Shown here one piece after another: positions 12,535 through 40,567 of a stretch of 64,000 nucleotides of DNA. Under the pieces are notes generated by a model that saw only the letters and a list, made by a program, of their open reading frames with translations, was not told where the DNA came from and made no database searches. The first letter of the stretch is position 1. Every line of letters starts with the position of its first letter. The position numbers and the translations under genes are program-made. The stretch is from a virus, in IMG/VR virus record IMGVR_UViG_3300017917_001176, positions 1 through 64,000 of that record. The stretch is one strand, 5' to 3'.

Positions 12535-12562
12535 TAACAAGGGCTTCGGCCCTTGTTTTACT

Positions 12563-12591
12563 TTGACACAAAAGATTGGTTGTACTATAAT
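12563..12591 (+). promoter_or_regulatory. sigma70 promoter
   Basis: TTGACA-17 nt-TATAAT. Confidence 0.8.
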
Positions 12592-12614
12592 AACTACAAC
12601 TACAAAGGAATTCT

Positions 12615-17947: not shown

Positions 17948-18146
17948 TCCGGCACCCAACGGATACGATTACAATCAAGATTATTACGACAGCATGGATG
18001 CCTGGGCACAAGAACACTGTGCCAGTTATGTAGGATACATTGTGGTTGATGTTGCAGATGTCAGCGCCTTTTGGGACGAAATTGGCGAATACGAATTTCG
18101 TGACCCAAAAGATGCAATGGCTTTTACATTAAAATTTAAACACTGA
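17922..18146 (+). CDS. hypothetical phage protein
   Basis: 74-aa ORF. Confidence 0.65.
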
Positions 18147-18441
18147 AGCTGCTGCCGCAACCACAGGTTGTTTGTGCGTTGGGATTCTTGATTACAAACT
18201 GACTGCCCATATCGTTTTCTTCGTAGTCTAACACTGCACCAGTTAGGTACTGCATGCTCATGCTGTCTACTAGAACTTTGCCTAATTCAAAGTCATCTTC
18301 TTCTTTGGCTTGTTCAAAATCAAACACATAGTTGAATCCTGAACATCCGCCGCCTTGAATTGATATACGCAGATAAGGTTCTGCATTTTCTGCAAGGCCC
18401 ATGTCAATTTCTTTGACTGCTGTTTCTGTAATTGTGATCAT
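18136..18441 (-). CDS. erpA: A-type Fe-S carrier (ErpA/HesB family)
   Basis: GGGCSG and [14 protein letters not shown]; likely start MITITE at 18441. Confidence 0.88.
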
Positions 18442-18815
18442 TGGTGTTTTCCTTTGTAGTCTGCAATTGCTGCTTTGATTGCGTCTTCTGCTAGAATGCT
18501 GCAATGTATCTTAACAGGAGGCAATGCCAGTTCTTCTGCAATAACAGAATTTTTAATGGTCTGCGCCTCATCCAAGGACATGCCTTTTAGCATTTCTGTT
18601 ACCAGGCTCGAACTGGCAATGGCACTACCGCAACCGTATGTTTTAAACTTTGCATCTTCAATGATACCTGCATCGTTTACTTTAATTTGTAGTTTCATTA
18701 CGTCACCACACGCAGGCGCACCTACCATGCCTGTGCCAATGCTGTCGTCAATGTCGAACTTGCCCACGTTACGTGGATTTTCATAATGGTCAATCACTTG
18801 ATTTGAATATGCCAT
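18438..18815 (-). CDS. iscU: Fe-S cluster scaffold IscU
   Basis: [35 protein letters not shown]. Confidence 0.96.
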
Positions 18816-18817
18816 AG

Positions 18818-19138
18818 TTATACCCTAAAACTTTCTCCGCATCCGCAGCGGTCACGTTCATTTGGATTCTTAAAATCAAATCCTTCATTAAGTCCCTGGC
18901 GTATGTAATCCATTTCCAGACCCGACACGTATGCTAGACTCTTAGGGTCAACAAAAATATTCACGTCGTATGATGTGTATTGTACATCCTCTGGATCGGG
19001 GGTGTCAACGTATTCGAGTTTGTATGCAAGTCCGCTACAGCCTGTGGTGCGAACTCCTACCCTAATGCCCACACCGTGTCCGCGATGGGCGATAGTTTTC
19101 ATGACCTTTTCGGCCGCTTTTTGAGTTAATGTTATCAT
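18818..19138 (-). CDS. iscA: Fe-S cluster assembly protein IscA
   Basis: TTGCSGLAY and NPNERDRCGCGESF. Confidence 0.93.
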   Translation of the reverse strand: MITLTQKAAEKVMKTIAHRGHGVGIRVGVRTTGCSGLAYKLEYVDTPDPEDVQYTSYDVNIFVDPKSLAYVSGLEMDYIRQGLNEGFDFKNPNERDRCGCGESFRV

Positions 19139-19197
19139 GTTGTCTGGGTGTCCTATTGTAAATTAGTGCCAGCTTTGTATTTATTGTAAATATTCAT

Positions 19198-19773
19198 ATG
19201 AAGCCTGTTTTAATGATTCACGAAATGAGTGAGTCTATTTTAGCACTGCCCTTGAAGAATTATGTGCTAACATTTGACGATGCTCTTTACAGCCAGTACT
19301 ACTATTGGCCGCAATTGCGTGATATACCCACGCAAAAATACTTCTTTGTAAGCTCAGACATACTGTGTGTAAATGGCATACAAAGTCAAGAATTCCCTTC
19401 TTGTACCGCAGCACATGCCAAAGCAGCCACGGGCAACTACGAAGATTACATGACCTTGTCGCAGTTAAAAGAACTAGCACAAGACCCCAGAGTAACCATT
19501 GGCGGGCACGGGCATGTTCATAAAGATCTACGCAAAACACAAGGTCTACAAAATCGTATCACTTTCATGCTAGAAGACACAGAACGCATGCTCAACTGGT
19601 TTGACACTAATCTTCAATTTAGACCAACTGCATTCTGCTATCCTTACAACAACGATGTGGATCAATTGTACACTGCGGTTTTACAACGTGCTGGCTTCAA
19701 GCAATTTTTCGGTCGTGAGCGAACACCAGTTGAAACGCTTCTGCAAAACACGCACCTATCTGAGTGCCTCTGA
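19198..19773 (+). CDS. polysaccharide deacetylase (NodB/CE4-like)
   Basis: LTFDD, GGHGHVH, FCYPY. Confidence 0.8.
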   Translation: MKPVLMIHEMSESILALPLKNYVLTFDDALYSQYYYWPQLRDIPTQKYFFVSSDILCVNGIQSQEFPSCTAAHAKAATGNYEDYMTLSQLKELAQDPRVTIGGHGHVHKDLRKTQGLQNRITFMLEDTERMLNWFDTNLQFRPTAFCYPYNNDVDQLYTAVLQRAGFKQFFGRERTPVETLLQNTHLSECL

Positions 19774-20347
19774 GCACTGCCAGTGCTTCCATACTTTCAA
19801 CTGATCTAGCATCAGGATACTCATAGGTCTCGGTGTCATACCATGACAGTACAGTTCTTTTGGTGTCCATGTAATCTGTTATATCCACCCACTGATTGGC
19901 CTGCATGATTGTGCCTGTGGCCCAGTTAACTGAGTTTTCACACATGTACAATCTTTTTACTGTGCAATCTGCTTTTGGTCTGCATGCAACCAGCGCAGCT
20001 TCTGCTGTTAACTTATGATCTCTATGCAGGTCATCACGATGATGTGTGTACACTACATCAATATCCAACTGCTGTACCAACTGAGATATGTGTTCAACTG
20101 CATGTGTATAATCTAGATGCACATCATCAGCTTCACCAATCACAGAGTTTGCCCCCAACATCTGACACACACGTTGAAATGTTTGTTGCCGTGCTTCCTC
20201 AACGTATTCTGCATTTGGTCTATTACCTCTGCACAAGCTGGCTATCCATACTCTATGCCCATCTGCGGTTAGTTTTCTAATGGTACCGGCTGGCCCAAAC
20301 GCTTCATCATCTGGGTGTGCAAATACAAACAGTATGTTCTGTTTCAT
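19697..20347 (-). CDS. PIG-L/LmbE family N-acetylsugar deacetylase
   Basis: AHPDDE, HRDH, AEAF. Confidence 0.88.
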   Translation of the reverse strand: MKQNILFVFAHPDDEAFGPAGTIRKLTADGHRVWIASLCRGNRPNAEYVEEARQQTFQRVCQMLGANSVIGEADDVHLDYTHAVEHISQLVQQLDIDVVYTHHRDDLHRDHKLTAEAALVACRPKADCTVKRLYMCENSVNWATGTIMQANQWVDITDYMDTKRTVLSWYDTETYEYPDARSVESMEALAVLRGTQIGACFAEAFQLVFAHDRKIA

Positions 20348-21282
20348 AGCATGTCCTTGATAATACTGTCTAGGTCGTATGCGGGCACGTATCCTGTTAC
20401 TGTTTTAATCTTGCTTAGATCCGGAACACGCATGTCAATGTCACCGTGATTCTTGCTGAATGCTTGTTCATAGGGTACATGCACTATTTTGCTACCTGAA
20501 CCACTGAGTTCAATCACACGTTCAGCCAATTGATTTATAGTAACAGGCTGGTCGTTGCCAATGTTAAACAGCTCTCCATTTACAGTGGATACTTTGAGCA
20601 ATGCGTTCATGGCATCTTTAACATGACAAAAACTGCGCACCTGTGTGCCACTGCCGTATATGATCAAGTCTTCATTGCGTTTGGCTGCATTAACAAAGCG
20701 TGGCAGTACCATACCGTAGTCGCCCAACTGTCCAGGTCCTGTTACATTAAAGAATCGTACCAGTGTGAACGGAAAGTTACTGGCGCGAATCTGAAACTCA
20801 GTCATTAGTTTTGCTGTGGCATACCCCCAACGCAGTTTGCTACTGGGGCCAATGCTGGCATTGGCTTCTTCGTGGAACGGACCGTTGCCGTATATCTCAC
20901 TGGTGCTGGAGAATACCACATGACGTTTGGCTTTTTGAAAGAATGGAATTAGTTTATTGTTTAGTGCAATGTTGTTGAACAGTGTGCCACTAGGGTCTTT
21001 GTCAATGTGTTCTACTCCAACACTGCCTGCCAGGTGCCAGATCTTGTCGTGCTTGCGCACAATCTGTAACAGTTCATCTTCACTCATGGCAGTTAAATCG
21101 CCTTCGATAAAGCGATACAGGTTCTTATGCACAGCAAACTCCTCGCGAGGATCGCTGCTGGTAGCTAGATTATCAATCACAGTAACGCCCACATGGCGTT
21201 CACGTTGATTAAACAGTGTGTGAGTCAGGTGCCGACCAATGAAGCCCGCGCCGCCCAGAATTAAATGATTCATATATTTCAC
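20344..21282 (-). CDS. NAD-dependent NDP-sugar epimerase/dehydratase
   Basis: GGAGFIG, STSEIYG, YATAK, RFFNVTGP. Confidence 0.9.
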   Translation of the reverse strand: MKYMNHLILGGAGFIGRHLTHTLFNQRERHVGVTVIDNLATSSDPREEFAVHKNLYRFIEGDLTAMSEDELLQIVRKHDKIWHLAGSVGVEHIDKDPSGTLFNNIALNNKLIPFFQKAKRHVVFSSTSEIYGNGPFHEEANASIGPSSKLRWGYATAKLMTEFQIRASNFPFTLVRFFNVTGPGQLGDYGMVLPRFVNAAKRNEDLIIYGSGTQVRSFCHVKDAMNALLKVSTVNGELFNIGNDQPVTINQLAERVIELSGSGSKIVHVPYEQAFSKNHGDIDMRVPDLSKIKTVTGYVPAYDLDSIIKDML

Positions 21283-21823
21283 CTAGTGTTATTGCTTCTG
21301 AAAATACAGGTCTAAGATCTGCCATGGCTCTTACTACATCTCGTACATGTGCAATGGCATGCAGCTGATCCGGATTCTCAGGTTTGTGTGCAGTACCCAT
21401 CACGCAGCGTTTAACAAAGCTGTCCGGATCTGCATCTTCACCGTATACAGATGGCAAGCGATAGTTTACACATTCGCGTCCTGTGTGCTTTAGATAGATT
21501 TCCATGCACCGCTTGGCTACATTATACGCACCTTGCGCCGTTTCTGCAATATGTTCAGCACCAAAACTGCTGGCATTAACAAACACTGCATCGGAGTCAA
21601 TGGCAAGAGCTTTTCGAGTTAGATCCATGATAGTATCCATTACACCTGTGGTATCTTCTTTGATACGTGCAGTTGTAGCAGGGCAAGCCAGGTGATAGAT
21701 TCTTTCGCATGATACAGGCGTGAAATCACGGTCAATCAGCACCACGTGGTGGCCTCTACGCTGCAATTCCACCACTAAATGTCGGCCTATAAAGCCAGTG
21801 TGCCCTGTTACTGCGATTTCCAT
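21209..21823 (-). CDS. short NAD-dependent epimerase/reductase
   Basis: TGHTGFIG, YNVAK, YRLPSVYG. Confidence 0.8.
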   Translation of the reverse strand: MEIAVTGHTGFIGRHLVVELQRRGHHVVLIDRDFTPVSCERIYHLACPATTARIKEDTTGVMDTIMDLTRKALAIDSDAVFVNASSFGAEHIAETAQGAYNVAKRCMEIYLKHTGRECVNYRLPSVYGEDADPDSFVKRCVMGTAHKPENPDQLHAIAHVRDVVRAMADLRPVFSEAITLGEIYESFNSGRRGLHWSAPDSHTV

Positions 21824-22287
21824 ACTGCGTTATCCCATCCTAATCGAATAAATCGTACACCAGGTTTTTGTAATCCTTCTTTGACTGCGCGAACAAAACT
21901 GCTGCAATCTTCTGGTTCATACAGTGGTATGTCTAGCGCATCCATAAGTGCGGCATCATCGGCAACAAGGTGGCCACGCCCACAGATGCTATAACAGCCA
22001 TTATGTCCAGCATTAACAAAAATAATACTGCCCGTGTTTTCGGCCCAACCTTTGATATTAAGTTTAATTTGCTCATATGCTTTGTAGATAACGAATCCTG
22101 CGACTCCGTATATAATTACTTTCTTTCCTTGACTAGCCAGCCCTGCTGCAATGTTAACCATGTTGGGTTCTTGCACACCGCAATTGATTTGTTTATAATC
22201 ACCGTCGGTCCACTTCCACATGTCTCCATGCAAGAAATAAACTTCGCCCGGGTAGCGTGAAAGAAACTTATGTAAGGTTGCTCGCAT
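21808..22287 (-). CDS. transketolase-like pyrimidine-binding (C-terminal) subunit
   Basis: NCGVQEPNMVNIAAGLA, RA/KAYEQIK-type motif. Confidence 0.82.
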   Translation of the reverse strand: MRATLHKFLSRYPGEVYFLHGDMWKWTDGDYKQINCGVQEPNMVNIAAGLASQGKKVIIYGVAGFVIYKAYEQIKLNIKGWAENTGSIIFVNAGHNGCYSICGRGHLVADDAALMDALDIPLYEPEDCSSFVRAVKEGLQKPGVRFIRLGWDNAVWKSQ

Positions 22288-23539
22288 CTGCTAACCATTC
22301 ATGATAGATTTTGCCACGGTGAATATTAATTAATTCATAAGGATCAATTTGTTCCCGTGGAGCCTGCGCCATGCCAAAACCGCTAAGAACATATTCCCAG
22401 GCTTCAGCAGGAAAAATATCAGTTTCTTTGTAGGGTTCAATTGACAGTGTTTTAAAATGATCCCAATACTCATTGCTGCGCTCTGAATATCTATAGTGTG
22501 CAGCAATAAAATTAACAATGGCATCAAAGTTCTCGTTGATCTGTTGATTGTATTCTGCCTCAGTTAACTTACCATCAATGTATGCACCAATCTTTTCAAT
22601 GCTGCTGATGATCAAATAGATGCCTGTGCTTTCCAATGGTTCAATAAAGGTTGCAGCAAGACCAATGCCAACCACGTTGTCCTGTAGATGCACACGATTG
22701 CGACCTGTAATAAAGTTCACTGTGTTAACTTCGGGTGGCTCAACTCCTGTGTAGTCTTTTACGTGGGCAACAAACTCCTGGTGTACATCAAACCGTTTGT
22801 CATGCACATACCCAAATGCTAGCCTATCGCCCAGTGGAATATGCCAGCACCAACCATGTTCCATTGCCTTAAACATACTGTAGGGCTTGCACTGTTTAGC
22901 ACGGTCAGTGTACAGTACACGAGTGGTCAATGCGCAATTGTTTGGAATGATATGACTGAAGTCTTCAAAGTTGTTTTCACGTTTGCTTACATGTCTAGCA
23001 AAGCCTGTGCTGTCGATCAGTAGATCGTAAGTGCCAGCCAGTTCTTCTTTGGTTGCAGTCTTACGGATCACTGTTAGATTGGGCATTTCGTGTAAACGTG
23101 TGTCTAGATATGCTGCCATTTCAGTTGTGCGGAAATGTGTGGCAATGTCTGGGTATTGTAAAATCTCATCCGGTATACGTTCTGTTTCAATGATACGATT
23201 GATACTAGCGGTATTGTGTTTTCCAATTTCACCAATGCCAAAAGGAAAACTAAAACGCTCACCAGGTCTGTTGAACCCATCAAACACAATGCCCAACTTT
23301 AACGTACCGTTGCAATGCTTGATAATATTTTCGTGTGTGATATCAATGCTTTTTAAAAAGTGACTGCTCTTGGGCACTAATGCTTCGCCCACGCCAATTG
23401 GATCATTCACCTCAGGAAATATCCAGGTGATAGATTTGTCTTTGTAGGTTTTTGCAAAGTAAAAGGCTGCTAGGTAGCCGCTAGTTCCGCCACCAACGAT
23501 TGTAATTCTGTTGATGTCTCGATCTTTTTGTAGTGCCAT
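22268..23539 (-). CDS. flavin-dependent halogenase (tryptophan halogenase family)
   Basis: IVGGGTSG, IGVGEA, GTLKLGI, WCWHIPL, FIEPLESTG. Confidence 0.85.
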   Translation of the reverse strand: MALQKDRDINRITIVGGGTSGYLAAFYFAKTYKDKSITWIFPEVNDPIGVGEALVPKSSHFLKSIDITHENIIKHCNGTLKLGIVFDGFNRPGERFSFPFGIGEIGKHNTASINRIIETERIPDEILQYPDIATHFRTTEMAAYLDTRLHEMPNLTVIRKTATKEELAGTYDLLIDSTGFARHVSKRENNFEDFSHIIPNNCALTTRVLYTDRAKQCKPYSMFKAMEHGWCWHIPLGDRLAFGYVHDKRFDVHQEFVAHVKDYTGVEPPEVNTVNFITGRNRVHLQDNVVGIGLAATFIEPLESTGIYLIISSIEKIGAYIDGKLTEAEYNQQINENFDAIVNFIAAHYRYSERSNEYWDHFKTLSIEPYKETDIFPAEAWEYVLSGFGMAQAPREQIDPYELINIHRGKIYHEWLADASNLT

Positions 23540-24189
23540 TTTTTGATATCCTCTGTCATTGATTTTACGCCATGCCCTTTTTGTGTTTTACAAAACACTA
23601 TGTTAGGAATATTGTCCACCAGGTTAGCAAACGCCTGTCCTAGTTTTTGTTTGTCGTGTCCATTGACTTCTTGTACCCACCAATGGTAGTGTCTACAAAA
23701 GTCTTTAACCGGGTTTACCTTAAGCACGTCAGACACTGTTCCTGTAACCTGTGCGTTATTGTAGTCCACAGTAACAAATATGTTGCTGATCTGATGATGC
23801 CCAATAAACTGTAGTGCTTCCAGCGTATTGCCCATTTGCAGTGTGGCGTCTGTGATGTTTACCCACACACGTTGCCCAGGGTCTGCTAGTGCGATCCCAA
23901 TGGCAACACCTAGTGCATTGCCCATGGTTTCTTCACCGTAGTCCACAAACAACAACTCGTCGTGCTTGACTCCTACGCTTAAATCTTCTATTGTTCCTAG
24001 GTAGCCCAGCTTGCGCCACACTAGATAGTATGCTTGTGAACCAAAAGGCTTGCCAATAACAATGTGGTCCTTATAAGGTTTCACAATGCCGTCTGTGAAC
24101 AACACATCCACATAGTCCAGCATGCTCAGGGCACTAGGAATATGACTCAGTTGCTGCTGATAGGAATATTCTAACAGTTCCTTTTTCAT
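23470..24189 (-). CDS. transketolase-like TPP-binding (N-terminal) subunit
   Basis: SHIPSALS, GNALGVAIG, degenerate GDG motif (TDATLQMG), VDYNNAQ, VNGHD, TQKGHG. Confidence 0.8.
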   Translation of the reverse strand: MKKELLEYSYQQQLSHIPSALSMLDYVDVLFTDGIVKPYKDHIVIGKPFGSQAYYLVWRKLGYLGTIEDLSVGVKHDELLFVDYGEETMGNALGVAIGIALADPGQRVWVNITDATLQMGNTLEALQFIGHHQISNIFVTVDYNNAQVTGTVSDVLKVNPVKDFCRHYHWWVQEVNGHDKQKLGQAFANLVDNIPNIVFCKTQKGHGVKSMTEDIKKWHYKKIETSTELQSLVAELAAT

Positions 24190-24902
24190 ACAAACAACTC
24201 CTTGGGCAAATTACCATTCATCATTCTAATGCTGATCTGTTCTCGCTGTACGTCAAATTTACCAAACTGAAAAACTCGTTCAGGAGTATCACCGTTCATT
24301 ATGTACTTGGGTACTTCGTAACTCCACCGCCAGCTGTTCCAAATTGGATATAACATTTTGATTTCATTGTTAACAAATCCGTAGTAGGAAACATCGTTCA
24401 CTGGAAACAGATATAATCGAACGCCATCACGCCAGGTGTACTCTTTTGTTTTAGCATACAGTTGACTGAAACGATGTGCTGCCACTGCGGTTAACTGTGC
24501 AGGTGTTGCCTGCTGTTCTAGATTTGTATAGTAGATAAAATTATCATCTTCGTATTCAATTGGCGGCATGATATCAAATTCGTCACTGCGAGTGATCTGC
24601 TCAAAACGATTGATTATAAGAGCTCGCTGCTCGAGGTCCAGCGCATCACCAAACTCTGCTGGTAGTACTCTATTCCATCCAGACTGCATTCTAGCAAAGT
24701 ATTCTGGATTGTGTTGATTGATTAAATGTATGTACTTGAATGTAAAATTAATTGACCGTGGAACAATTACCTGCTGCGCTGTTCTAAAATGAAAATGATA
24801 ATAACTGTTGTTGCGTTTGGCTTCCTCTACCGTTGCATCAGGTAACAAGGAAGCCAATTGTTCAAACGTTTGAACTAGAAAGTAATTGTCCTGATCAAAC
24901 AT
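24186..24902 (-). CDS. hypothetical protein
   Basis: 238-aa ORF coupled on both sides. Confidence 0.7.
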   Translation of the reverse strand: MFDQDNYFLVQTFEQLASLLPDATVEEAKRNNSYYHFHFRTAQQVIVPRSINFTFKYIHLINQHNPEYFARMQSGWNRVLPAEFGDALDLEQRALIINRFEQITRSDEFDIMPPIEYEDDNFIYYTNLEQQATPAQLTAVAAHRFSQLYAKTKEYTWRDGVRLYLFPVNDVSYYGFVNNEIKMLYPIWNSWRWSYEVPKYIMNGDTPERVFQFGKFDVQREQISIRMMNGNLPKELFV

Positions 24903-32924: not shown

Positions 32925-33844
32925 AATGCTTTAACCAATTCTAAAAAGTAATCATTGTTGGTTAACAACAATGAATTCAGGTCCTGTGCTATTGCACGTT
33001 TTCTTGCTTCAATACCAGCGTCCACATAATCAATTTCATACTGCACCTGTTTGCCAAACACAGCGCATTCTACAATGAACCGAGGACTGCAATCAAATTG
33101 ATTAGGAATCGCAGTATATATGTAGGTATCAAATCTGTTAAAAATATCCTGTACAGGCACCTGTGCCAGTGTTACATTGGGTGCAGTCAATGACTGATAT
33201 AGATCAACATTGTTTGTGAGAATCAAATAGTTCTCGTGCTCTTTTCTATCAATGATAGCCTGTATTGTGCGTGGATCCAGTCCACGACAGTTGGTAGTCA
33301 GATACAATAGTGCGGTGTTGGTTGCAACTGACTGCGGCTGTTGATACCGATTCCATAATATCTTTTTGTTGTAGTCAACCACAGTGATGTCTAGATCGCA
33401 GTAGCGTTCGTCATACACATTAAAATCCTGTAACAACCAGGTGTGCTTGATTGTTTTGTGTTGATGAAAATAATCAAACTCATATGCTGCACATCTTAAT
33501 AGTATAACATGATCAGCATAGATTGTGCAAGAATCAAAACGTGGTGCTCCATCAACTACACACAGAGCGTGAGTTATAATAACTTTGGGTTGAGCACACT
33601 CAATGGTATGAGTTGCAAACTGCTCCAGTTCGGGCTCAGTGAAGTTGTATTTGTCTTGAATTGCTTGTATCAGTGTTGTTTTGGTTGTACCATCTGATAA
33701 CAGTATTGCACAGTTGATTTGATTTTGTCTGCACACATGAAAGTAGTCAATCATTTCGTACAAATGACCAGACACCCCGTGAGTGTTTTCAAACGAGGTG
33801 GTGAAGACTAGATCATATTCTTTCAGTTGAAGGATCTTAGACAC
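32921..33844 (-). CDS. hypothetical protein (possibly degenerate GT-B fold)
   Basis: 307 aa; SPRFIVECAVFGK resembles the GT-B E-x-x-x-x-G-K segment. Confidence 0.55.
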   Translation of the reverse strand: MSKILQLKEYDLVFTTSFENTHGVSGHLYEMIDYFHVCRQNQINCAILLSDGTTKTTLIQAIQDKYNFTEPELEQFATHTIECAQPKVIITHALCVVDGAPRFDSCTIYADHVILLRCAAYEFDYFHQHKTIKHTWLLQDFNVYDERYCDLDITVVDYNKKILWNRYQQPQSVATNTALLYLTTNCRGLDPRTIQAIIDRKEHENYLILTNNVDLYQSLTAPNVTLAQVPVQDIFNRFDTYIYTAIPNQFDCSPRFIVECAVFGKQVQYEIDYVDAGIEARKRAIAQDLNSLLLTNNDYFLELVKAL

Positions 33845-33862
33845 AATGAACTTACATTGCTG

Positions 33863-34969
33863 TTAAGCAGTAATTTCAGCGTAGGTTAATGGAGTATATC
33901 CTAATTCAGCAAAGATGTCTTTGGGTACGCGAGCAAGATCTTCTACTGTCAGGTTACCCTTCATTTGCAATGCGCCAGGACGCCATTGCTTTTTAAGAAT
34001 CAGATCTTCAAGAGTAACATATATTAGATCTGTCATCTCTGGATTCCACTTGATCTCACCCGGAACATAGTCTTGGAATCTTCTGTTGAATGTGTCTACG
34101 TCTGCTGAGGTTGTTGGAGAAATTGGAATATGTACATCCTTCTCCCAGGCTGTTAGATACTGATTGCCACCTTCATTCATAGTAGGCGGACATTTGATAT
34201 TACTACCGTTGAAGGTAAATGTTTTATCTCTTAAGATGTCTTCGTATCGTACTGTTTGTACTCCAGGAGTATTCTTAAGAATCATTGCATTAAGAATAGA
34301 ATAGTTCAGCTTGGTAGCATCATCTTCTCTGTTCTGAATTTCACCAGGCGGTACAGAATTTTCGTAATGGGCAGCAGATTTGGCATGCAATAAAGATACC
34401 ACTGATGGATTACGAATGATGTTTAGTACCGAAACATTTTGCTCGCCTAGATCTTGGCGCAAACGTTCAATAAAGAATCTACCAAACATGCCAGTGATGA
34501 CTTGCACAGGGTATGTGCGTTTCTCATATTGTTTTAGTATGTGTTCGTAATCGTGCGGAGTAGGTATATTGTACGTTAGATTGCGTTCTGGAAATGGTGC
34601 ATCTACGTCTTTAATAAATCCATGGTCATACCATACGTCTGCAAATACATCGTAGTAGTGATTGGTACCAGTACCCCGTTGAAATAAGATGTCGCGAATC
34701 TTTTTTGCTTTATCAATGATATCAATTCGAGGACTCACGTTTTCAATTGTGTCTCCAGGAATAGCCAAACCTGCCAATGGATTACCCTCCATGTCAGTGT
34801 CTGAGCTTTCGTTTACTACCAGTCGTCCAGCTGGGTCATAGATTTTAAAATTATTATCAGTAAAGTCAATGGTATATCCGCCCAGTACAAACGTGTTTAA
34901 CTGCGCCAGCAGTTGACGGGCGAAAAACATTTTATTTACGGTTTCTGTTCCGCTTAGGACAACTAGCAT
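33863..34969 (-). CDS. hypothetical protein, sulfotransferase/P-loop-like
   Basis: IIRNP and VRYEDIL segments. Confidence 0.5.
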   Translation of the reverse strand: MLVVLSGTETVNKMFFARQLLAQLNTFVLGGYTIDFTDNNFKIYDPAGRLVVNESSDTDMEGNPLAGLAIPGDTIENVSPRIDIIDKAKKIRDILFQRGTGTNHYYDVFADVWYDHGFIKDVDAPFPERNLTYNIPTPHDYEHILKQYEKRTYPVQVITGMFGRFFIERLRQDLGEQNVSVLNIIRNPSVVSLLHAKSAAHYENSVPPGEIQNREDDATKLNYSILNAMILKNTPGVQTVRYEDILRDKTFTFNGSNIKCPPTMNEGGNQYLTAWEKDVHIPISPTTSADVDTFNRRFQDYVPGEIKWNPEMTDLIYVTLEDLILKKQWRPGALQMKGNLTVEDLARVPKDIFAELGYTPLTYAEITA

Positions 34970-34971
34970 CC

Positions 34972-35373
34972 TTATCTCCTTAGGTACTCTTCTACTATGC
35001 TATTTACGCCGGCTTGATCATTATGATCTGCCAGTCTCTGTAGTTTAGTAATAATATCTTGGTACTCTTGCTTTTTGTGTTCAATCTTTTTCATATTGTC
35101 AGCAAGAGTAATATAACGCTCTAGGTCAATGATCAGACTTTCGTCGCCCGATTCGATAACTTTGATATAGCATTCTTCTCTGTTGTTATCGGTAATAAAA
35201 ATACCTTTGCTGGCAAACTTGTTGTTCAATTGCATAAACGAAACAAAATCAAGCAAAGTAAAAATTAACAGCTCATCACCCATGATTCCACGAGCTTTGA
35301 CTTTGACCGCTACTGCTGCTTTGCCTGCATAGGTGGTGCCATCAATTCCTTCTATTTCTTTTACTTCTTTCAT
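34972..35373 (-). CDS. hypothetical protein
   Basis: 133-aa ORF directly downstream of the Cys-repeat gene. Confidence 0.7.
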   Translation of the reverse strand: MKEVKEIEGIDGTTYAGKAAVAVKVKARGIMGDELLIFTLLDFVSFMQLNNKFASKGIFITDNNREECYIKVIESGDESLIIDLERYITLADNMKKIEHKKQEYQDIITKLQRLADHNDQAGVNSIVEEYLRR

Positions 35374-35374
35374 G

Positions 35375-36025
35375 TTATCCTTCGATCATGTTCACTGGTA
35401 GTTGAGAATAGTCAACAAAGTAATACCCACCGCGGTCGGTACCAAGTGCTGACTCATATTTTGTTCCAAGTAGTTCTTGTGCAATTACACCAATATACTT
35501 TTTGTCTTTGTTCCACTTGTAGGTATATGAATACACATTCAAGTCACCTTCTGTACGCAGGAACTCAACATTGTCTTTTAGACGTTGGTCACTGTAGTTA
35601 CAGTTACAGGTACAAGCATAGTTACAGTTACAGGTACAGTAGTTACAGTTACAGGTACAGTAGTTACAGTTACACAAACACACTGCGCCAGCAGTTTTAA
35701 CTTTCTGAATCATTGCATTAATATTAGCAGCGTACACAATACCATCTACGGCAACGTTGGTAAATCCTGCTGCGTATGGATAACTGCCAGTGGACAAATT
35801 TCCCTGCATGAGATTCAAATGTCTAGCAAGGATGTTTCCATCTGTGTACACTGTTTGTACTGCTCTTGCGGCATTACCTCTGCGAGCAAGTTCAGAGTTT
35901 ACAATTCCGGCCAACTCTGCCATCTTAGATGCTAGTACCCTGCTGTCAACTGCTGCATTAGCTGTTGTGTAGGTTACTGCATCGTTGATTGCAGTTCCAC
36001 CTTGTTGTTCTGGTCCAATTGGCAT
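35375..36025 (-). CDS. fibre-like protein with (CxCNCNY)x4 core and C-terminal Peptidase S74 intramolecular chaperone
   Basis: CLCNCNYCTCNCNYCTCNCNYACTCNCNY-SDQRLKDNV...GVIAQEL...VDYSQL; RBS AAGGA. Confidence 0.85.
   Translation of the reverse strand: MPIGPEQQGGTAINDAVTYTTANAAVDSRVLASKMAELAGIVNSELARRGNAARAVQTVYTDGNILARHLNLMQGNLSTGSYPYAAGFTNVAVDGIVYAANINAMIQKVKTAGAVCLCNCNYCTCNCNYCTCNCNYACTCNCNYSDQRLKDNVEFLRTEGDLNVYSYTYKWNKDKKYIGVIAQELLGTKYESALGTDRGGYYFVDYSQLPVNMIEG
35594..35680 (-). repeat. 21-bp tandem repeat x4 encoding CxCNCNY
   Basis: GTAGTTACAGTTACAGGTACA units on the + strand with one 3-nt insertion. Confidence 0.95.
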
Positions 36026-36037
36026 TTCTATTTCCTT

Positions 36038-36421
36038 TTAAATTTCTTTTTTAAGAAAATCTAAACTGTCAGCTGCTTTGGTCTGCGCTAAAAACTTTTC
36101 GTAGTCGTCTAGATCTGATGTAATAAATTCCAAGGTGGCTGCGTCTGGCACTTTAGTACTCAAAATTTCAGTTTCGGTCTGCAAGGAATTGGTTAGAATA
36201 TGACTGACCAATTGCTCTAGGTCGTATCCCAGTGCCTTGGACACAAAGTCAACCTGCTGTGTGAGATCCACTGTTTCGCGTTTGCCAGCTTCTGCAACTG
36301 CTTGAATGGTATTCACTGTGATGCCAAATCCTTCTAGTAGCAGCGCACCAACAGTTGGATCCTCATCGCTGATCTCTTTGATAAGTGCATAAATTTGTTC
36401 GATTTTTTCAACGATAGTCAT
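36038..36421 (-). CDS. hypothetical acidic helical protein
   Basis: 127-aa ORF, ATGA-coupled. Confidence 0.7.
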   Translation of the reverse strand: MTIVEKIEQIYALIKEISDEDPTVGALLLEGFGITVNTIQAVAEAGKRETVDLTQQVDFVSKALGYDLEQLVSHILTNSLQTETEILSTKVPDAATLEFITSDLDDYEKFLAQTKAADSLDFLKKEI

Positions 36422-37317
36422 GTTAGTTCCTTGTCTTTAAAGTCATGAAATTTTGGAGAGTTTTCGTAATTCTCGTACGTTGTGACATTACCTTCGTCCG
36501 TATAATACGTTTTGAGCTCTTTTCTTTCACCACAACCACTGCACATGTCGCAGAAAAGCTCGCAAACAGGCGTGGATATAGTCTTATTTATCCAGTCCTG
36601 ACGCAGCAGCTTTTTTGCATCTTGCAGCTTTTGCATGTCTTCGGGCTGTAGTGTGCTCCAGGCCACGCTGGTGATCAGGCGCCCTGGGCGGAATGTTTTA
36701 ATAACACGAGTCATGTCTTCATACAGGTGATTTATGTTGCCCTGCTGTATGGTATATCTAATGCGGAATTTTACTCCGTTTTTTAACAGATTGCGAAACA
36801 CCTGTATCATCATAGGAGTGGACTCTGTTCCAGCATGTGTTACTCTGTCCTGATTACCAATACCGTCAAAACTAACATCAATGCTCAACAGTCCACGCTG
36901 GTAGAAAAACGTGTTTTTAACTTCGTCAATAAACCGCTGACTTAGGAATTTGATGCCATTGGTTTCCAAATTAAAATGCACATTGTTCTTTTTATTGTAT
37001 GCGTATTCCATTGCATAGCACACGTTCTCCCATTCCAATGTGGCTTCGCCGCCAAACAGTACAATCAATGTTTGGTTATCTGGATTTTCTCTAGCCAGTA
37101 TCGAATCAATGGAGTCTCGTATGTTTTGCTTTGATAGTATCTGCGGAGGCCGACCTGGCAAATCCTCGTAGCAGTAGGTACACGCCAAATTGCACTTGTT
37201 GGTAAAGTATAGAACATTAACGCCAGATCCTGCGGGTGTAGGAAGATCTGTTTTATCGCCTACATAAAAGTTTAGGCCAGGGTTCGCACCAACAAAGGAT
37301 CCAACAATCTGACTCAT
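36418..37317 (-). CDS. radical SAM protein (maturase-like, short C-terminal Cys motif)
   Basis: CNLACTYC, FGGEATL, SFDG, CELFCDMCSGC. Confidence 0.9.
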   Translation of the reverse strand: MSQIVGSFVGANPGLNFYVGDKTDLPTPAGSGVNVLYFTNKCNLACTYCYEDLPGRPPQILSKQNIRDSIDSILARENPDNQTLIVLFGGEATLEWENVCYAMEYAYNKKNNVHFNLETNGIKFLSQRFIDEVKNTFFYQRGLLSIDVSFDGIGNQDRVTHAGTESTPMMIQVFRNLLKNGVKFRIRYTIQQGNINHLYEDMTRVIKTFRPGRLITSVAWSTLQPEDMQKLQDAKKLLRQDWINKTISTPVCELFCDMCSGCGERKELKTYYTDEGNVTTYENYENSPKFHDFKDKELT

Positions 37318-37634
37318 TGTATAATCATCTTATGTTTGTTTTTGTATCGCTCTTCTTCACGCATGGCTTTTGCTTGTTTGATTATATGACTCATGTTTTC
37401 TAAAAAACGCACATAGTCATATTTGTAGTCAAACAGATGTCCACGCTCGTCGAGTTCAAAGCCAACATACTGACTGTCTACCTTGGCTTTACCTTTACGT
37501 GCTTCATCAATCTGCGCTTGTAACTCTTCTGTGGTTAACACTCGATTGCTTGCATGCTCAACAGGCTGCATCTCAACCTTGATAGGTACAGCAATAATAC
37601 TCTTAAAAGATTTTTTTGGTTTTAGTTCCGACAT
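37314..37634 (-). CDS. hypothetical protein
   Basis: 106-aa coupled ORF. Confidence 0.65.
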   Translation of the reverse strand: MSELKPKKSFKSIIAVPIKVEMQPVEHASNRVLTTEELQAQIDEARKGKAKVDSQYVGFELDERGHLFDYKYDYVRFLENMSHIIKQAKAMREEERYKNKHKMIIQ

Positions 37635-38746
37635 TCCACACCCTCGTTTTCTACACCAACGTTTTCAATGTAATGCAATATCAAGTCTTGGAACAATGGT
37701 TCATCGCGGCATTCTTCAACCACACGCATGGCCTGTTCATAATAGATATGAAACAGTTCGCAGATACTGTCCAATGGCTTGTTATCATTCATAACCTGAC
37801 TATAGGTACAGCCTGCATTACATACCTGCTTGAGATCGCAAGGCTCGCACTTGTCATAGCTGCCTGGATTGAAAATCTTTTGATAGTACTTGAAGTCGTA
37901 TGCTTCGTCCATCTTCATGATCTTCTTGCTGGCAAAACGAGCACAGGGATAAAACTCTCCTGAACTCATTAGCACACCGCCATTGGTTCCTGCGAAGCAA
38001 CCAAACTGTCGCTTGCCTTTGACCAAGCCGTATAGAATATCTAGTATGGCCAATCTTAAAAATCCAACACTGCACGGAACGCCTTCTTTGATCTTCTTGA
38101 TCCAGAATGTTGCTAGACGTTCGCATTCATAGCGGAATTCAACAATGTCTTCTCTGGTCCATACGTCATCTCTTACGATAGAGAAGTCAGGATGCTCGAT
38201 GCCCCAGCTTAATAGGAACTCAAAGTTCTCTACCATGTCCTTGGTGTTGCCAGGCCAAATCATCACCTTGCATCCGTTGGTAAGACCAGTGATCAATTCC
38301 TTCTTGTAATTGTACATGTCCAGAATACCGTCAAACAGTTCACCTGTTTCTGGATTGGTATTTTCCAACAGCGGCAACAAAGGTCGTGTTTCGTTAGAGC
38401 TCATACCGTCAAAGCTCCAACTAACACCCACACCGTTTTCTCTAAGATAAGTGGCTTTTTCCTCATCAATCATGGTGAGGTTGGTAATGATGTTAATACC
38501 CTTACACTTTTTGTCTGCTCTGAGTTTAGGTACTGCATGTTTGATCAAATCAAAGTTCAACAGCGGCTCGCCACCAAAGAAACTCACGTGATACTCTGCA
38601 TCACCTGATCGTAACATCAGCTTGTGCAGATCCACTAGACCTTTGTCAAATATTTCGTTGGTCATCCAAGTAGGACGGTTGGCCACATAACAATACGGGC
38701 AACCTAAATTACATTTTTCTGTTACGCTTACTTCTAGAGTGAACAT
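37622..38746 (-). CDS. radical SAM/SPASM domain peptide-maturase-like protein
   Basis: CNLGCPYC, FGGEPLLN, SPASM CFAG..YPC..CEPCDLKQVCNAGC..C. Confidence 0.92.
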   Translation of the reverse strand: MFTLEVSVTEKCNLGCPYCYVANRPTWMTNEIFDKGLVDLHKLMLRSGDAEYHVSFFGGEPLLNFDLIKHAVPKLRADKKCKGINIITNLTMIDEEKATYLRENGVGVSWSFDGMSSNETRPLLPLLENTNPETGELFDGILDMYNYKKELITGLTNGCKVMIWPGNTKDMVENFEFLLSWGIEHPDFSIVRDDVWTREDIVEFRYECERLATFWIKKIKEGVPCSVGFLRLAILDILYGLVKGKRQFGCFAGTNGGVLMSSGEFYPCARFASKKIMKMDEAYDFKYYQKIFNPGSYDKCEPCDLKQVCNAGCTYSQVMNDNKPLDSICELFHIYYEQAMRVVEECRDEPLFQDLILHYIENVGVENEGVECRN

Positions 38747-39840
38747 TGCTCTGCCTCAAATTTAATCACTGGCTTTTTATAACTCTTGAGTGCAGTACGC
38801 AGTGCATGATGAACGATCTCATTGCTTTTGAATACTTTGCAAACCTGCCAGTTACTGGTGTGGTCGCTCCACTTCTCAAGGTATGTATCTTTCTCAGACT
38901 TTTCATATGTGGCTGCATTACATTTCATACAGAACTGACTGTCGCAGCTAATACAGTCCAGCGGCTGATTCTTCAGCGCATCTCTGTACATGTCTGTTTT
39001 TTCTTTAATCAGTGCATCTAGGTCTGGTGCCTTAAAGATGTTGCCAATCACGTGTGCATGAGATTCTTTGTACATACAACCGTGGCAAGGACTGATATCG
39101 CCATTCAAGTCTACGCTGATATAGTTGATACCAGATGCACACAAGGCACGACTTTGTGTGAACCAACCAAACTTTTCCGGAGGCAGTTTGTTTACATAGA
39201 TGTACTTGGCAATCTTGGTCAAGCCTTCTTTAAGCACTTCCAGGCGCGGCATGAACTCTTCTTCAGTTAACTGTGAGTACATGTCGGGTGTTGGAAAGTA
39301 GTTTTCGTCTAGTTCAATTACATCAAGAAACGCTTCGTAGATCAAATGAAAGTGTTCTGCTGTGAGTACGCTTTTCATGCGCACGTTCAAGCCTGCTTGC
39401 TTGGCAGCAAGGTAGTTTGATTTAACCAATGTAGAACTTGGATTGCCTGCCTTGTCAATACGAGTAATATCGTTTACTGGCTTGCCATCATAGCTGACCT
39501 GAATATTCAAACGATTTGGCATAGCTTCGTGCAAACGCACTAGATCCTTAAGATACTTTTTCAAGTATACGCCATTGGTGTAAAAGAAAAAGCTGTAGTT
39601 GGTGTCGTCTTTGTATTTCTCCATTACGCCACGGCAGAAGTCATAGTTAACAAATGGCTCGCCGCCCCAGAAGTAAATATCCTTCTTGGGATCGCTGATT
39701 TTGTTCATGAACTCTTCGATGTTTTCCAAGGTTACTTCTGTGTTTTCCTCGTATGCTGTGCTCAGACCGCACTCAAATCCTTCTGAACAGTAGGTGCAAG
39801 CTAGATTGCAAGTACTGGTTACATTAATATCAATTACCAT
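38734..39840 (-). CDS. radical SAM/SPASM domain protein
   Basis: CNLACTYC, WGGEP, SYDG, CASG..SPCHGC..CISCDSQFCMKC..C. Confidence 0.92.
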   Translation of the reverse strand: MVIDINVTSTCNLACTYCSEGFECGLSTAYEENTEVTLENIEEFMNKISDPKKDIYFWGGEPFVNYDFCRGVMEKYKDDTNYSFFFYTNGVYLKKYLKDLVRLHEAMPNRLNIQVSYDGKPVNDITRIDKAGNPSSTLVKSNYLAAKQAGLNVRMKSVLTAEHFHLIYEAFLDVIELDENYFPTPDMYSQLTEEEFMPRLEVLKEGLTKIAKYIYVNKLPPEKFGWFTQSRALCASGINYISVDLNGDISPCHGCMYKESHAHVIGNIFKAPDLDALIKEKTDMYRDALKNQPLDCISCDSQFCMKCNAATYEKSEKDTYLEKWSDHTSNWQVCKVFKSNEIVHHALRTALKSYKKPVIKFEAEQCSL

Positions 39841-40567
39841 TTCTATACCCTTTGTTAAGTTCTAATACGGTGTCCAACAATGCTAGTTTGTATTTATGGG
39901 TTAAAGCCTGCGTGTCTTTGGGCAAGCAAGGGCCGCCAAATCCTCGCTGGCCGTCTGGCCCAGGAACTGCAAAGTGATGTGAACCCATCCACGGATGCGT
40001 GGACAAAATCTCTGCCGCAGTAGCATAATCTGCACCCATATCCTGGGCAACATCATAAATGGAATTCATGTATGTTACTTTGAGCGCATAGAATGTATTC
40101 ATTGTGTATTTTATAAGAGATGCCGTGGGAATGTCAACCAAATAACAGTTTGATGTGTCCACAGTTGATTCTCTAGCATACAGATCCAGCAGCTCTTGCC
40201 CACGCCGGCCGCCAATGATCAGGTATTCTGGATTAACAAAATCCTCTAGAGAAGTGCTGCGAGTTAAAAACTCTGGGTTGTACAGCACATCAAACCCTGC
40301 GAGATGCTCTGGCAGCACTGTGCTTTTGACCACCACTAGACCTGTGTAGTTGGAGTCTTTGATTTCTTGTAAAACTGATTTGAGCAGTGCGTAGTCTGTG
40401 CCATCCGAGGGTGTAGGAACGCACACAAAGATTGCATCCAGCTCCATTTTGCAAAGGTGCTTGACGCTTACTGTGTTATATTTAGGGTCTGAGTAAAATA
40501 CTTGAGTTTTGGAAAAGCCGTGTTTGACGGCTCTTCCAACCATGCCGTAGCCAATAATTCCGATCAT
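39830..40567 (-). CDS. UDP-glucose/GDP-mannose dehydrogenase family (lacks C-terminal domain)
   Basis: GIIGYGMVG, CVPTP, KSTV, NPEFL, GFGGPCLPKD. Confidence 0.88.
   Translation of the reverse strand: MIGIIGYGMVGRAVKHGFSKTQVFYSDPKYNTVSVKHLCKMELDAIFVCVPTPSDGTDYALLKSVLQEIKDSNYTGLVVVKSTVLPEHLAGFDVLYNPEFLTRSTSLEDFVNPEYLIIGGRRGQELLDLYARESTVDTSNCYLVDIPTASLIKYTMNTFYALKVTYMNSIYDVAQDMGADYATAAEILSTHPWMGSHHFAVPGPDGQRGFGGPCLPKDTQALTHKYKLALLDTVLELNKGYRNGN

Follow-up and report, generated by a model that had tools for sequence, protein, structure and literature searches.

Why should a phage encode ten radical S-adenosylmethionine (rSAM) enzymes directly behind its tail-fibre genes, and on what would they act? 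The question is raised by a stretch of viral DNA of 64,000 nucleotides (nt), here called the window, which is the first 64 kb of the IMG/VR record IMGVR_UViG_3300017917_001176. Its minus strand carries, from 40567 to 18136, a cluster of 31 genes. A sequence-only reading of this DNA had proposed that the cluster, lying downstream of tail fibres and consisting mostly of coupled genes, uses the chemistry of peptides that are made on ribosomes and modified after translation (RiPPs) to cross-link and decorate a small cysteine-repeat protein at a fibre tip. The layout is borne out: two genes with PHROG tail-fibre matches stand upstream, and the 28 genes between 40567 and 19697 (-) either overlap or are separated by no more than 18 nt. 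Weighing the evidence set out below, we think the chances slightly better than even that with this cluster the phage encodes a pathway for maturing a small protein of the particle type, which we call the Cys-heptad protein.

This protein and its repeat are encoded as follows.

35375-36025 (-): Cys-heptad protein, 216 amino acids (aa), with an N-terminal domain (aa 1-115), the heptad tract (aa 116-144) and an S74 chaperone (aa 145-216).
35594-35680 (-): heptad tract, VCLCNCNY-CTCNCNY-CTCNCNY-A-CTCNCNY, aa 116-144; for Tandem Repeats Finder (TRF) a repeat of period 21 with 3.7 copies and 91% matches.

To compare this gene with its relatives, we used 39 IMG/VR loci, 5 loci from prokaryote metagenome-assembled genomes (MAGs) and 77 metagenome loci (L numbers below), whose six-frame open reading frames (ORFs) were searched with every window protein. 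The protein belongs to a family of more than 650 clusters at 90% identity; its own cluster in the ESM Atlas is 99% viral, and a copy with 98% identity lies on a 353-kb contig. In 121 members the heptad reads Cys (100%), Thr (76%), Cys (100%), Asn (93%, with Asp at 6%), Cys (100%), Asn (95%, with Asp at 4%) and Tyr (98%), while overall identity across the same members is only about 45-55%. Set against that background, conservation of C, N and Y at 93-100% places the heptad pattern beyond chance. Exactly four heptads are present in 105 of the 121 (range 3 to 12; up to 18 in the wider locus set), and one extra small residue precedes the last heptad. We presume that the tract is both the modified segment and the mature C-terminus. 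A three-heptad protein at L033:9710-10465, an ORF of 252 aa, sits among large structural-looking ORFs.

Directly after the tract, at S145, begins the S74 domain (PF13884, 29.7 bits against a cut-off of 22, residues 145-185), and S145, D146, R148, L149 and K150 of its S-D-x-R-L-K motif are invariant in the family alignment. Profile and Ser...Lys motif together mark the protein as a Peptidase_S74 member, for which cleavage is predicted. The four CxCNCNY heptads and the S74 domain of the earlier description therefore stand, but its fibre-like N-terminus is weakly backed, by one PHROG tail-fibre match (aa 18-185, E = 6e-4). A BLASTP comparison with the neighbouring fibre found no common N-terminal attachment domain. 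Within the N-terminal domain E45, R48, R49, A99 and N103 are invariant, and G113, just before the tract, is nearly so. The monomer model in the ESM Atlas is of poor quality (pTM 0.39); it tells us no more than that the protein is related to viral S74 proteins.

The family varies in what comes after the tract. Among 112 distinct ORFs, a full S74 domain is present in 48, and about 20 have in its place no more than a conserved stub of 12 residues (S-D-E-x-L-K-x-x-I-E-Y-M); 16 end four residues or fewer past the tract, and the remainder run into further CxC-rich sequence. Stub ORFs occur in L006, L017, L031, L074, L084, L109, L118, L119 and L122, and most stub-bearing members belong to loci with two to four heptad paralogues; a copy with full S74 may act in trans for those that have the stub, or mixed trimers may form. 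Heptad proteins that end at the last heptad and lack S74 are found at L124:6203-6685 and in L044, L036, L100, L106 and L121. L124 is syntenic with the window and has eleven rSAM ORFs; there, the last Tyr of the tract is also the final residue of the Cys protein. Since the S74-less relatives end exactly at the tract, the tract would be the mature C-terminus in both forms. Judged from these alignments, the conserved feature appears to be a C-terminal heptad tract, with S74 as this phage's probable route to exposing it. The S74-cleaved fibre tip put forward by the sequence-only reading thus fits the present gene, which has the motif, but cannot be extended to the whole family, in which fewer than half of the distinct ORFs have a full S74 domain.

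Three rSAM genes lie just upstream of the Cys-heptad gene. They and their small neighbours, from rS1 to h133, overlap or stand within 12 nt of one another, in the same block as the two tail-fibre genes.

38734-39840 (-): rS1, core rSAM enzyme of probable SPASM type (PF04055), with CX3CX2C at residue 11 and eight C-terminal Cys.
37622-38746 (-): rS2, core rSAM enzyme of probable SPASM type (PF04055) and most conserved partner, with a canonical CX2CX5CX3C at residues 300-313 plus flanking Cys.
37314-37634 (-): h106, small protein between rS2 and rS3, no real family match; in 13 of the 39 IMG/VR loci, always in the same position.
36418-37317 (-): rS3, core rSAM enzyme (PF04055), with a single C-terminal four-Cys motif, CX3CX2CX2C (Cys 252, 256, 259, 262).
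36038-36421 (-): h127, small acidic protein directly upstream of the Cys-heptad gene, no family match; in 11 of the 39 loci, close relatives only.
34972-35373 (-): h133, conserved helical partner directly downstream of the Cys-heptad gene; AlphaFold2 (AF2) pLDDT 91.5, five helices.

All ten rSAM proteins of the cluster, the number given earlier, score above the PF04055 cut-off (32.9-74.7 bits against 29.5) and carry one CX3CX2C motif each, between residues 11 and 56. Among solved structures, rS1 and rS2 appear closest to peptide thioether synthases. The best match of rS1 in the PDB is CteB (5WGG; residues 5-305 against 101-413, E = 4e-12), rS2 aligns with the same structure at E = 2.6e-17 (7-328 against 102-430, that is, past the RiPP recognition element, or RRE, of CteB), and both alignments run through the SPASM domain of CteB. 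For rS1 the SPASM profile gives 21.4 bits against a cut-off of 21.5, and a CX2CX4CX2C motif is present; for rS2 no Pfam SPASM match was listed. The SPASM subgroup is defined by a C-terminal seven-Cys motif (CX9-15GX4C ... CX2CX5CX3C ... C) that serves two auxiliary clusters; rS2 has its CX2CX5CX3C element, and rS3 only the single four-Cys motif. PapB (NF047865, cut-off 340 bits) is the top NCBIfam profile for all three enzymes, at 125.7 bits for rS2 (over positions 5-322 of 330), 74.1 for rS3 and 68.9 for rS1, and the profiles ranked next are other Cys-peptide maturases and QhpD (TIGR03906, E = 1e-13 to 4e-20). Against the SCIFF maturase profile TIGR03974, rS2 reaches 73.6 bits and so falls outside that family, whose cut-off is 425. 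Taken together, these matches suggest that rS1-3 work like Cys-peptide maturases while belonging to no named family.

If rS1-3 act on the heptads, the two should travel together, and they do. Of the non-redundant loci, 44 extend for 5 kb or more to each side of the heptad gene. In this flanked subset an rSAM homologue is present in 43, at least two of rS1-3 in 37, all three in 34, h133 in 31 and h307, a glycosyltransferase gene described below, in 28. The co-occurrence of Cys-repeat genes with rSAM genes, which had been suggested as a check, is thereby confirmed, L033 being the only rSAM-free locus of this subset. Across the 39 IMG/VR loci the counts are 35 for rS1, 32 for rS2, 33 for rS3, 28 for h133 and 24 for h307. 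Close relatives share the order UGDH-rS1-rS2-h106-rS3-h127-CYS(x1-4)-h133-h368-h307-rS4-GT2-rS6-rS7-U32like-rS10 (CYS, the Cys-heptad gene), and full synteny over 22 kb is confined to them (L001-L008, L013, L031, L036, L124). Distant relatives have rS2-rS3-rS1-CYS-h133-h307 plus extra STM4011-like rSAM genes; the gene set is kept while its order changes. On MAG contigs (L044, L045, L046, L048), heptad genes with rS1-3 are seen in Thermoplasmata, Erysipelotrichaceae and Chloroflexota bins, and an 835-aa heptad protein with no rSAM gene nearby in an Anaeromicropila bin; such MAG-binned genes may belong to prophages, to mis-binned phages or to cells. We considered h133 as the missing RRE and dropped the idea, its model being all-helical and giving no fold match in a Foldseek search of the PDB at E <= 0.001.

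Is the wider gene set one system, or does it only share a neighbourhood? In a collection of 50,697 phage records, the 15 strong rS2 matches and the 15 heptad matches fall in the same 11 phages, all Firehammervirus, the group II phages of Campylobacter. These phages carry 11-12 rSAM genes, described in 2010 as "highly unusual" and possibly a metabolic aid (PMC2853527). In CPt10 the heptad protein is gp145, of 534 aa, with seven CxC[DN]CNY heptads (six 21-bp units in TRF), further CxC motifs and no S74; the same genome paper noted the heptads only as the sole intragenic 21-bp repeat (PMC2853527). The CP220 record, pieced together from ten stretches, was searched with the window proteins. It has homologues of rS1 (4e-43), rS2 (4e-73), rS3 (2e-20) and rS4 (2e-88), rS8/9-like and rS10-like genes, h133 (1e-17, next to baseplate genes), two copies of h307 and the heptad gene. 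It also has the UDP-glucose dehydrogenase (UGDH)-like protein (2e-21), the thiamine pyrophosphate (TPP) half of a transketolase (7e-20), an epimerase (1e-22) and, adjoining the latter, PIG-L (2e-8). The pyrimidine half of the transketolase (5e-28) lies directly upstream of the Cys-heptad gene in CP220 and CPt10. Since these homologues are scattered over 177 kb, CP220 keeps the gene set without its linkage, an argument for regarding the window's extended block as a single functional system rather than as synteny by descent alone.

Two side observations concern CP220. Its module of five rSAM genes (66295-77718) adjoins a transketolase half and an h307-like gene, and the rSAM ORFs at 73382, 74359 and 76921 within it have no window counterpart at E = 1e-3. 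A link to DNA hypermodification through the 7-deazaguanine genes of CP220 was set aside: the rSAM gene there is a separate QueE-like one with no counterpart in the window.

Does the heptad protein reach the virion? In IBB_35, gene 3-9 (1605 bp, 60,318 Da, "no homologs") was among 38 virion proteins detected by mass spectrometry, at 2.6% coverage (PMC3322345). The heptad protein of IBB_35 lies at exactly the position of gene 3-9, and the mass that we compute for it is 60,317 Da. This is weak but direct evidence that a member of the family is part of the particle. AEI88213, the h133 homologue of IBB_35, is encoded two genes away from the "minor tail protein" 2-38 and is missing from the virion list, and this fits a helper rather than a structural role for h133.

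These data bear on a reading in which the locus makes a true RiPP. The N-terminal 115 aa would be a leader, the heptads the core and S74 a follower, and a modified Cys-rich peptide would be cut free, say behind the conserved Ala-Gly that precedes the first Cys, to act as a toxin, signal or metal binder outside the particle. The N-terminus is conserved in the manner of a leader and the would-be core is C-terminal, with some members ending exactly after it. Two to four paralogous precursors are encoded in L006, L031, L109 and L118, long leaders are known in NHLP/Nif11 RiPPs, and the nearly invariant G113 precedes the tract. Even so, Pfam, NCBIfam and PHROGs reveal no leader peptidase or exporter among the 31 genes (the only peptidase names being S74 and a sub-threshold U32), and no RRE is found in rS1-3. 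The family is 99% viral and adjoins tail-fibre genes, S74 serves trimeric virion proteins, virions of a Campylobacter phage were found to contain the homologue, and the invariant residues of the N-terminal domain point to conservation as a folded domain. We regard a released RiPP as very unlikely.

The maturation reading further has to account for the genes downstream of h133, which include a set of sugar enzymes, together with one at the upstream end of the block.

39830-40567 (-): short UGDH-like nucleotide-sugar dehydrogenase, 245 aa (PF00984, PF03721; TIGR03026 at 125 bits, below cut-off).
32921-33844 (-): h307, GT-B fold (GT4-like) glycosyltransferase; AF2 pLDDT 92.9, pTM 0.92.
31192-31851 (-): glycosyltransferase of family GT2, 219 aa (PF00535, 37.7 bits; weak PglI-like match); in 12 of the 39 loci.
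23470-24189 (-): transketolase-like TPP-binding half (PF00456, PF02775; NF004559, 83 bits).
21808-22287 (-): transketolase-like pyrimidine-binding half (PF02779, weak).
21209-21823 (-): short NAD-dependent epimerase/reductase, 204 aa (PF01370).
20344-21282 (-): NAD-dependent sugar epimerase/dehydratase, 312 aa (PF01370, 142.8 bits).
19697-20347 (-): PIG-L/LmbE-type de-N-acetylase (PF02585, 73.3 bits; best NCBIfam match BshB1, 58.8 bits, below cut-off).

The UGDH-like gene spans only profile positions 76-294 of 413, without the usual C-terminal domain, and is kept in 10 related loci (E = 1e-96 to 1e-111) as well as in CP220. Sequence and profile searches of h307 against the PDB gave nothing, as did those of h133 and the U32-like protein. 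Searched with its model, however, all Foldseek matches of h307 are GT-B glycosyltransferases. In VIA-align, PimA reaches Z 16.6 (root-mean-square deviation 3.5 A over 268 aligned residues), BshA Z 16.4 and about 50 other GT-B entries Z 14-16; the protein-glycosylating GtfA and SdgB are among the structural matches. On the strength of this model h307 can be assigned to the GT-B glycosyltransferases, on whose two Rossmann-like domains it superposes. The 312-aa epimerase/dehydratase matches UDP-xylose synthase, GalE and RmlB-type profiles, all below cut-off. The glycosylation arm, made up of h307, GT2 and the nucleotide-sugar enzymes, is real and conserved.

The remaining seven rSAM genes lie in the same part of the cluster.

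31848-32924 (-): rS4, rSAM enzyme (PF04055, 74.7 bits).
30288-31205 (-): rS5, STM4011-like rSAM enzyme (PF04055; best match NF038073, 46 bits against a cut-off of 200).
29386-30333 (-): rS6, rSAM enzyme (PF04055), 22% identical to rS8/rS9 over 300 aa.
28641-29396 (-): rS7, short rSAM enzyme, 251 aa (PF04055), with CX3CX2C at residue 11; in 13 loci.
27736-28656 (-): rS8, STM4011-like rSAM enzyme (PF04055), 41.5% identical to rS9.
26810-27793 (-): rS9, STM4011-like rSAM enzyme (PF04055); NF038073 and viperin-type N-terminal matches below cut-off.
24902-25990 (-): rS10, rSAM enzyme (PF04055) with C-terminal Cys pairs, a PapB N-terminal match and a TIGR04084 C-terminal match; in 16 loci.

In the PDB rS4 matches the thioether synthase SkfB (8e-10) and the cytosylglucuronate decarboxylase BlsE (3e-9) about equally, and a glucuronate-forming dehydrogenase is encoded in the block, so a sugar role is as likely for it as a peptide role. 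The paralogues rS5, rS8 and rS9 are 33-42% identical to one another (rS5 to rS8/rS9, 33-34%), and their best profile is the uncharacterised STM4011 family; rS6 is a distant cousin that is kept in close relatives (E = 1e-154 to 1e-171).

Iron-sulfur (Fe-S) assembly genes and a halogenase complete the enzyme set.

22268-23539 (-): flavin-dependent halogenase (PF04820, 219.1 bits, E = 1.4e-64), with GGGTSG at residue 16 and WCWHIP at residue 230.
18818-19138 (-): IscA-type Fe-S carrier (PF01521, 68.2 bits).
18438-18815 (-): IscU scaffold (PF01592, 173.3 bits).
18136-18504 (-): second IscA-type Fe-S carrier (PF01521, 60.5 bits), absent from the sequence-only reading.

IscU and both IscA proteins exceed the cut-offs of the NifU_N and Fe-S_biosyn profiles, and the halogenase has the profile match and the GxGxxG and WxWxIP motifs of its family. 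The halogenase, GT2, sugar enzymes and Isc proteins listed earlier are thus all present on the minus strand. Halogenation of a fibre finds no comparative support, and we have set it aside because the halogenase occurs in only 2 of the 39 related loci. We treat the halogenase and the Isc genes as variable accessories. In L004, however, a homologue of the second IscA (L004:6179-6516) lies inside the core cassette, between rS2 and h106, which ties Fe-S supply to these rSAM enzymes.

The uneven distribution of these genes invites a different division of the cluster, in which everything from h307 downstream is an auxiliary island for host surface or metabolism, one that remodels host polysaccharide for instance, and travels by descent beside the fibre module, and only rS1-3 concern the Cys protein. 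Such a division would account for the restriction of full 22-kb synteny to close relatives and for the poor conservation of the halogenase, the Isc genes, h238 and h368, and in the view of Timms et al. the five rSAM genes grouped in CP220 form a module that can be interchanged and is probably not essential (PMC2853527). It sits poorly with the presence of h307 and STM4011-like rSAM genes beside the core in reordered distant relatives (L030, L035, L037, L045, L112), with the retention of unlinked rS4, UGDH, both transketolase halves, epimerase and PIG-L in CP220, and with the translational coupling of all these genes to the core in the window. We consider a separate island very unlikely.

Several observations weigh against the maturation pathway itself. 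For every named maturase family, the scores of all the rSAM enzymes stay far short of the curated cut-off, and neither an RRE nor another known recognition domain is found; rS1 and rS2 begin at the rSAM core, and their alignment with CteB starts at its residue 101-102; of the RiPP-type thioether maturation proposed earlier, the kinship of the core enzymes with thioether-forming peptide maturases stands, but the RRE and the family-level scores are missing. L033, a well-flanked locus with a short three-heptad protein, has no rSAM gene (an ORF with CX3CX2C) within 10 kb. The Isc genes and the halogenase occur in only one or two related loci, some of the ten rSAM enzymes may never touch the protein and may act on sugars instead, as the resemblance of rS4 to BlsE illustrates, and in the Campylobacter phages the genes are scattered, so that linkage there is by phyletic pattern only. 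The virion detection amounts to 2.6% coverage in one 2012 study, of a 534-aa homologue without S74. Finally, the alternating, near-invariant Cys could equally mark the metal-binding or disulfide core of a trimeric beta-structure.

This last point is the starting point of the main rival, in which the heptad tract stays unmodified, inward-facing Cys of a trimer hold metal, Fe-S clusters or disulfides, and the enzymes make a different product, perhaps an unusual glycan or cofactor, for this or a neighbouring fibre. There is a model for it in the tip of the T4 long fibre, where His-x-His repeats hold iron. The C-x-C-x-C alternation, with Tyr at position 7, lines up every Cys along the same face of a strand, the beta-structures that S74 domains fold are trimeric, and Asn and Asp interchange at heptad positions 4 and 6. 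Isc genes lie within the cluster, sugar enzymes account for half or more of the accessory genes, rS4 is BlsE-like and h307 is a glycosyltransferase. What this rival leaves unexplained is that rS1 and rS2 are closest over their full length to peptide thioether synthases rather than to sugar or cofactor rSAM enzymes, and that the tightest and widest linkage of the Cys gene is with exactly rS1-3 and not with the sugar genes; heptad proteins without S74, moreover, exist. We judge a metal or disulfide core unlikely, if less so than a released peptide or a separate island.

Taking the observed gene content, coupling, family-wide conservation, co-occurrence and folds as given, we propose that a maturation pathway would run as follows. 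The Cys-heptad protein, made with the late structural genes, would be the substrate, and rS1-3, encoded just upstream, would act on its heptad tract. They would abstract hydrogen from a Thr, Asn or Tyr carbon, which would then be joined to a Cys sulfur to give thioether staples of the ranthionine or sactionine type. Thioether is the best-supported chemistry because of the precedents of CteB, PapB, the NxxC system and QhpD, with CrpC/CrpA as a precedent on a whole protein. As there are three Cys per heptad and three enzymes, one enzyme might serve each Cys position, which is a guess. S74 would trimerise the protein and cut itself off at S145, leaving the heptads as a free C-terminal tip. A second arm, comprising h307, GT2, the nucleotide-sugar dehydrogenase, the epimerase/dehydratases, PIG-L, the split transketolase, BlsE-like rS4 and STM4011-like rS5/8/9, would add and trim sugar on the heptad protein or a partner fibre, and some of the non-core rSAM enzymes may tailor phage-made sugar nucleotides. 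IscU and the two IscA proteins would supply the roughly 20 or more Fe-S clusters that ten rSAM enzymes need, and the halogenase would be a lineage-specific extra. These steps draw on gene adjacency, phyletic pattern, enzyme type and residue conservation and are proposals throughout, including the identity of the substrate, the thioether chemistry, the glycosylation of the heptad protein and its role at the particle surface. That 20 or more genes serve one virion protein, with a thioether ladder laid by three rSAM enzymes along each heptad and an unusual sugar, made by further rSAM enzymes, two glycosyltransferases and sugar-nucleotide enzymes, giving a hardened, decorated particle tip, is a tentative idea that we hold with clearly less confidence than the existence of a maturation pathway as such.

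Three further proteins of the cluster are less readily placed.

33863-34969 (-): h368, variable protein, no Pfam or PHROG match; in 11 loci, mostly its N-terminal part only.
25974-26873 (-): U32-like protein (PF01136, 16.7 bits against a cut-off of 22.4, E = 0.0046, over 33 residues).
24186-24902 (-): h238, orphan protein without Cys, no family match; no homologue in any fetched locus.

The U32-like gene named by the sequence-only reading is present, but its membership in the family falls below the Pfam cut-off. Its ESM Atlas neighbours are "collagenase and related proteases" (score 0.95), which is a lead only, and the protein is kept in close relatives (E = 1e-121 to 1e-158).

From what kind of virus does the cluster come? 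CheckV puts the 77-kb record at 17% completeness, so that it would be a fragment of a very large phage. A megablast search with 12 kb of the window against the 50,697 phage records gave no match, and hence no cultured phage at the DNA level. Upstream of the rSAM block, an uninterrupted minus-strand run leads from an ORF of 5738 aa through the two tail-fibre genes into the block.

42710-45124 (-): tail fibre gene, 804 aa, the block's upstream context (PHROG tail protein/tail collar fibre, E = 2e-31 to 1e-11; weak Collar domain).
40604-42673 (-): tail fibre-type gene, 689 aa, with a C-terminal end like an intramolecular chaperone (IMC; weak Peptidase_G2/IMC match, E = 4e-4).

Both have PHROG tail-fibre matches and gaps of 36 nt, and their N-terminal 120 aa are common to the two proteins at 48% identity; homologues of the 689-aa gene stand upstream of rSAM genes in 11 of the 39 IMG/VR loci. 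The 5738-aa ORF (46721-63937 (-), possibly open to 64000, with 2-7 nt gaps to the next two genes) matches only the FG-GAP repeat (E = 4.5e-11), with E1_FCCH just below threshold (29.3 against 29.5 bits), and is probably a giant fibre or adhesin of a large phage. Downstream, a 558-nt gap separates the main block, which ends at 19697, from the three Fe-S assembly genes. This gap, between PIG-L and the Isc genes, is occupied by a plus-strand ORF (19198-19773 (+)) that overlaps the end of the PIG-L ORF and has a marginal polysaccharide-deacetylase match (24.5 bits against a cut-off of 23.1). Farther out, a plus-strand arm (11431-13940 and 16282-17699 (+)) encodes an ATPase (phrog_1297) paired with a phrog_1314 protein, a dihydrofolate reductase and a thymidylate synthase, genes of the ordinary nucleotide metabolism of large phages.

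What would follow if the maturation pathway is real? To our knowledge, enzymes that staple their substrates through thioethers have been described for small secreted peptides and, since 2026, for a single protein of an archaeon. The pathway would represent a new class of post-translational modification of virions. It would be larger than any other dedicated maturation pathway known for a structural protein of phages, and conserved all the way from giant phages of aquatic habitats to those of Campylobacter. It would also explain why group II Campylobacter phages carry their 11-12 rSAM genes, a question open since 2010. The heptad family is abundant in aquatic and gut viromes, and the Campylobacter phages offer a cultivable model. 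With its tip stapled and glycosylated, a fibre could differ in host recognition and in resistance to proteases, and such tips could bear on how stable receptor-binding proteins are engineered.

How, then, does the locus compare with known systems? The nearest enzymes are those of CteB/CteA (SCIFF, thermocellin; 5WGG/5WHY) and PapB/PapA (freyrasin), with which the window shares the rSAM+SPASM alignment of rS1 and rS2, PapB as the top profile and a Cys-rich, repetitive substrate, here a presumed one, encoded next door. Unlike these, the window enzymes score three to five times below the family cut-offs, lack an RRE and number three instead of one, and their substrate would be a viral protein of 144 aa (mature) with an S74 chaperone, not a short secreted peptide, with the motif CxCNCNY in place of Cx3D or the SCIFF motif. 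In quinohemoprotein amine dehydrogenase, the SPASM rSAM enzyme QhpD makes intraprotein thioethers between Cys and Asp/Glu in the small structural subunit, QhpC. TIGR03906 is among the better matches for rS1-3 but remains far below its cut-off of 453 bits, and QhpC differs in being an enzyme subunit with a quinone cofactor and no repeats, from a bacterial periplasmic system.

S74 domains, as in endosialidase tailspikes and the L-shaped fibres of T5, trimerise the preceding segment and then cleave themselves at Ser; that of the window exceeds the PF13884 cut-off but follows a tract of Cys heptads only, in a very small protein. For the sugar arm, bacillithiol (BshA/BshB) and mycothiol (MshA/MshB) synthesis likewise pair a GT4-type GT-B transferase with a PIG-L/LmbE deacetylase, which by analogy suggests that h307 and PIG-L may carry out GlcNAc transfer followed by de-N-acetylation; the likeness is at the level of fold and family only, with scores below cut-off, and the window has no Cys ligase. 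The group II Campylobacter phages (CP220, CPt10, CP21, IBB_35) share with the window their many rSAM genes plus a (CxCDCNY)x6-7 protein and homologues of h133, h307, UGDH, the transketolase halves, the epimerase and PIG-L; they differ in that the genes are dispersed and the 534-aa heptad protein, without S74, continues into CxC motifs.

A precedent for a whole protein is CrpC/CrpA of Methanococcus voltae (TIGR04463), in which a SPASM rSAM enzyme puts ranthionine thioethers on a repeat-rich Cys protein whose repeats are C-terminal, behind a conserved N-terminal part, as they are here (PMC13692751, 2026). That system is archaeal and cellular; CrpC has an RRE and acts as a single enzyme on 17-residue repeats with C-x-x-Q/D, and there is no chaperone domain, no sugar arm and no virion. 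In the literature that we searched, for the heptad motif and for rSAM enzymes with phage fibres or virions, we found nothing relevant and no description of the heptad/rSAM/S74 combination in phages; an rSAM maturase does appear in one paper on a cyanophage, though just as an "antibiotic gene". The class of chemistry that we propose is a known one, and what would be new, against the literature searched, is its use on a viral particle protein, by a three-enzyme core that lacks an RRE, on CxCNCNY heptads fused to S74 and with a large accessory gene set.

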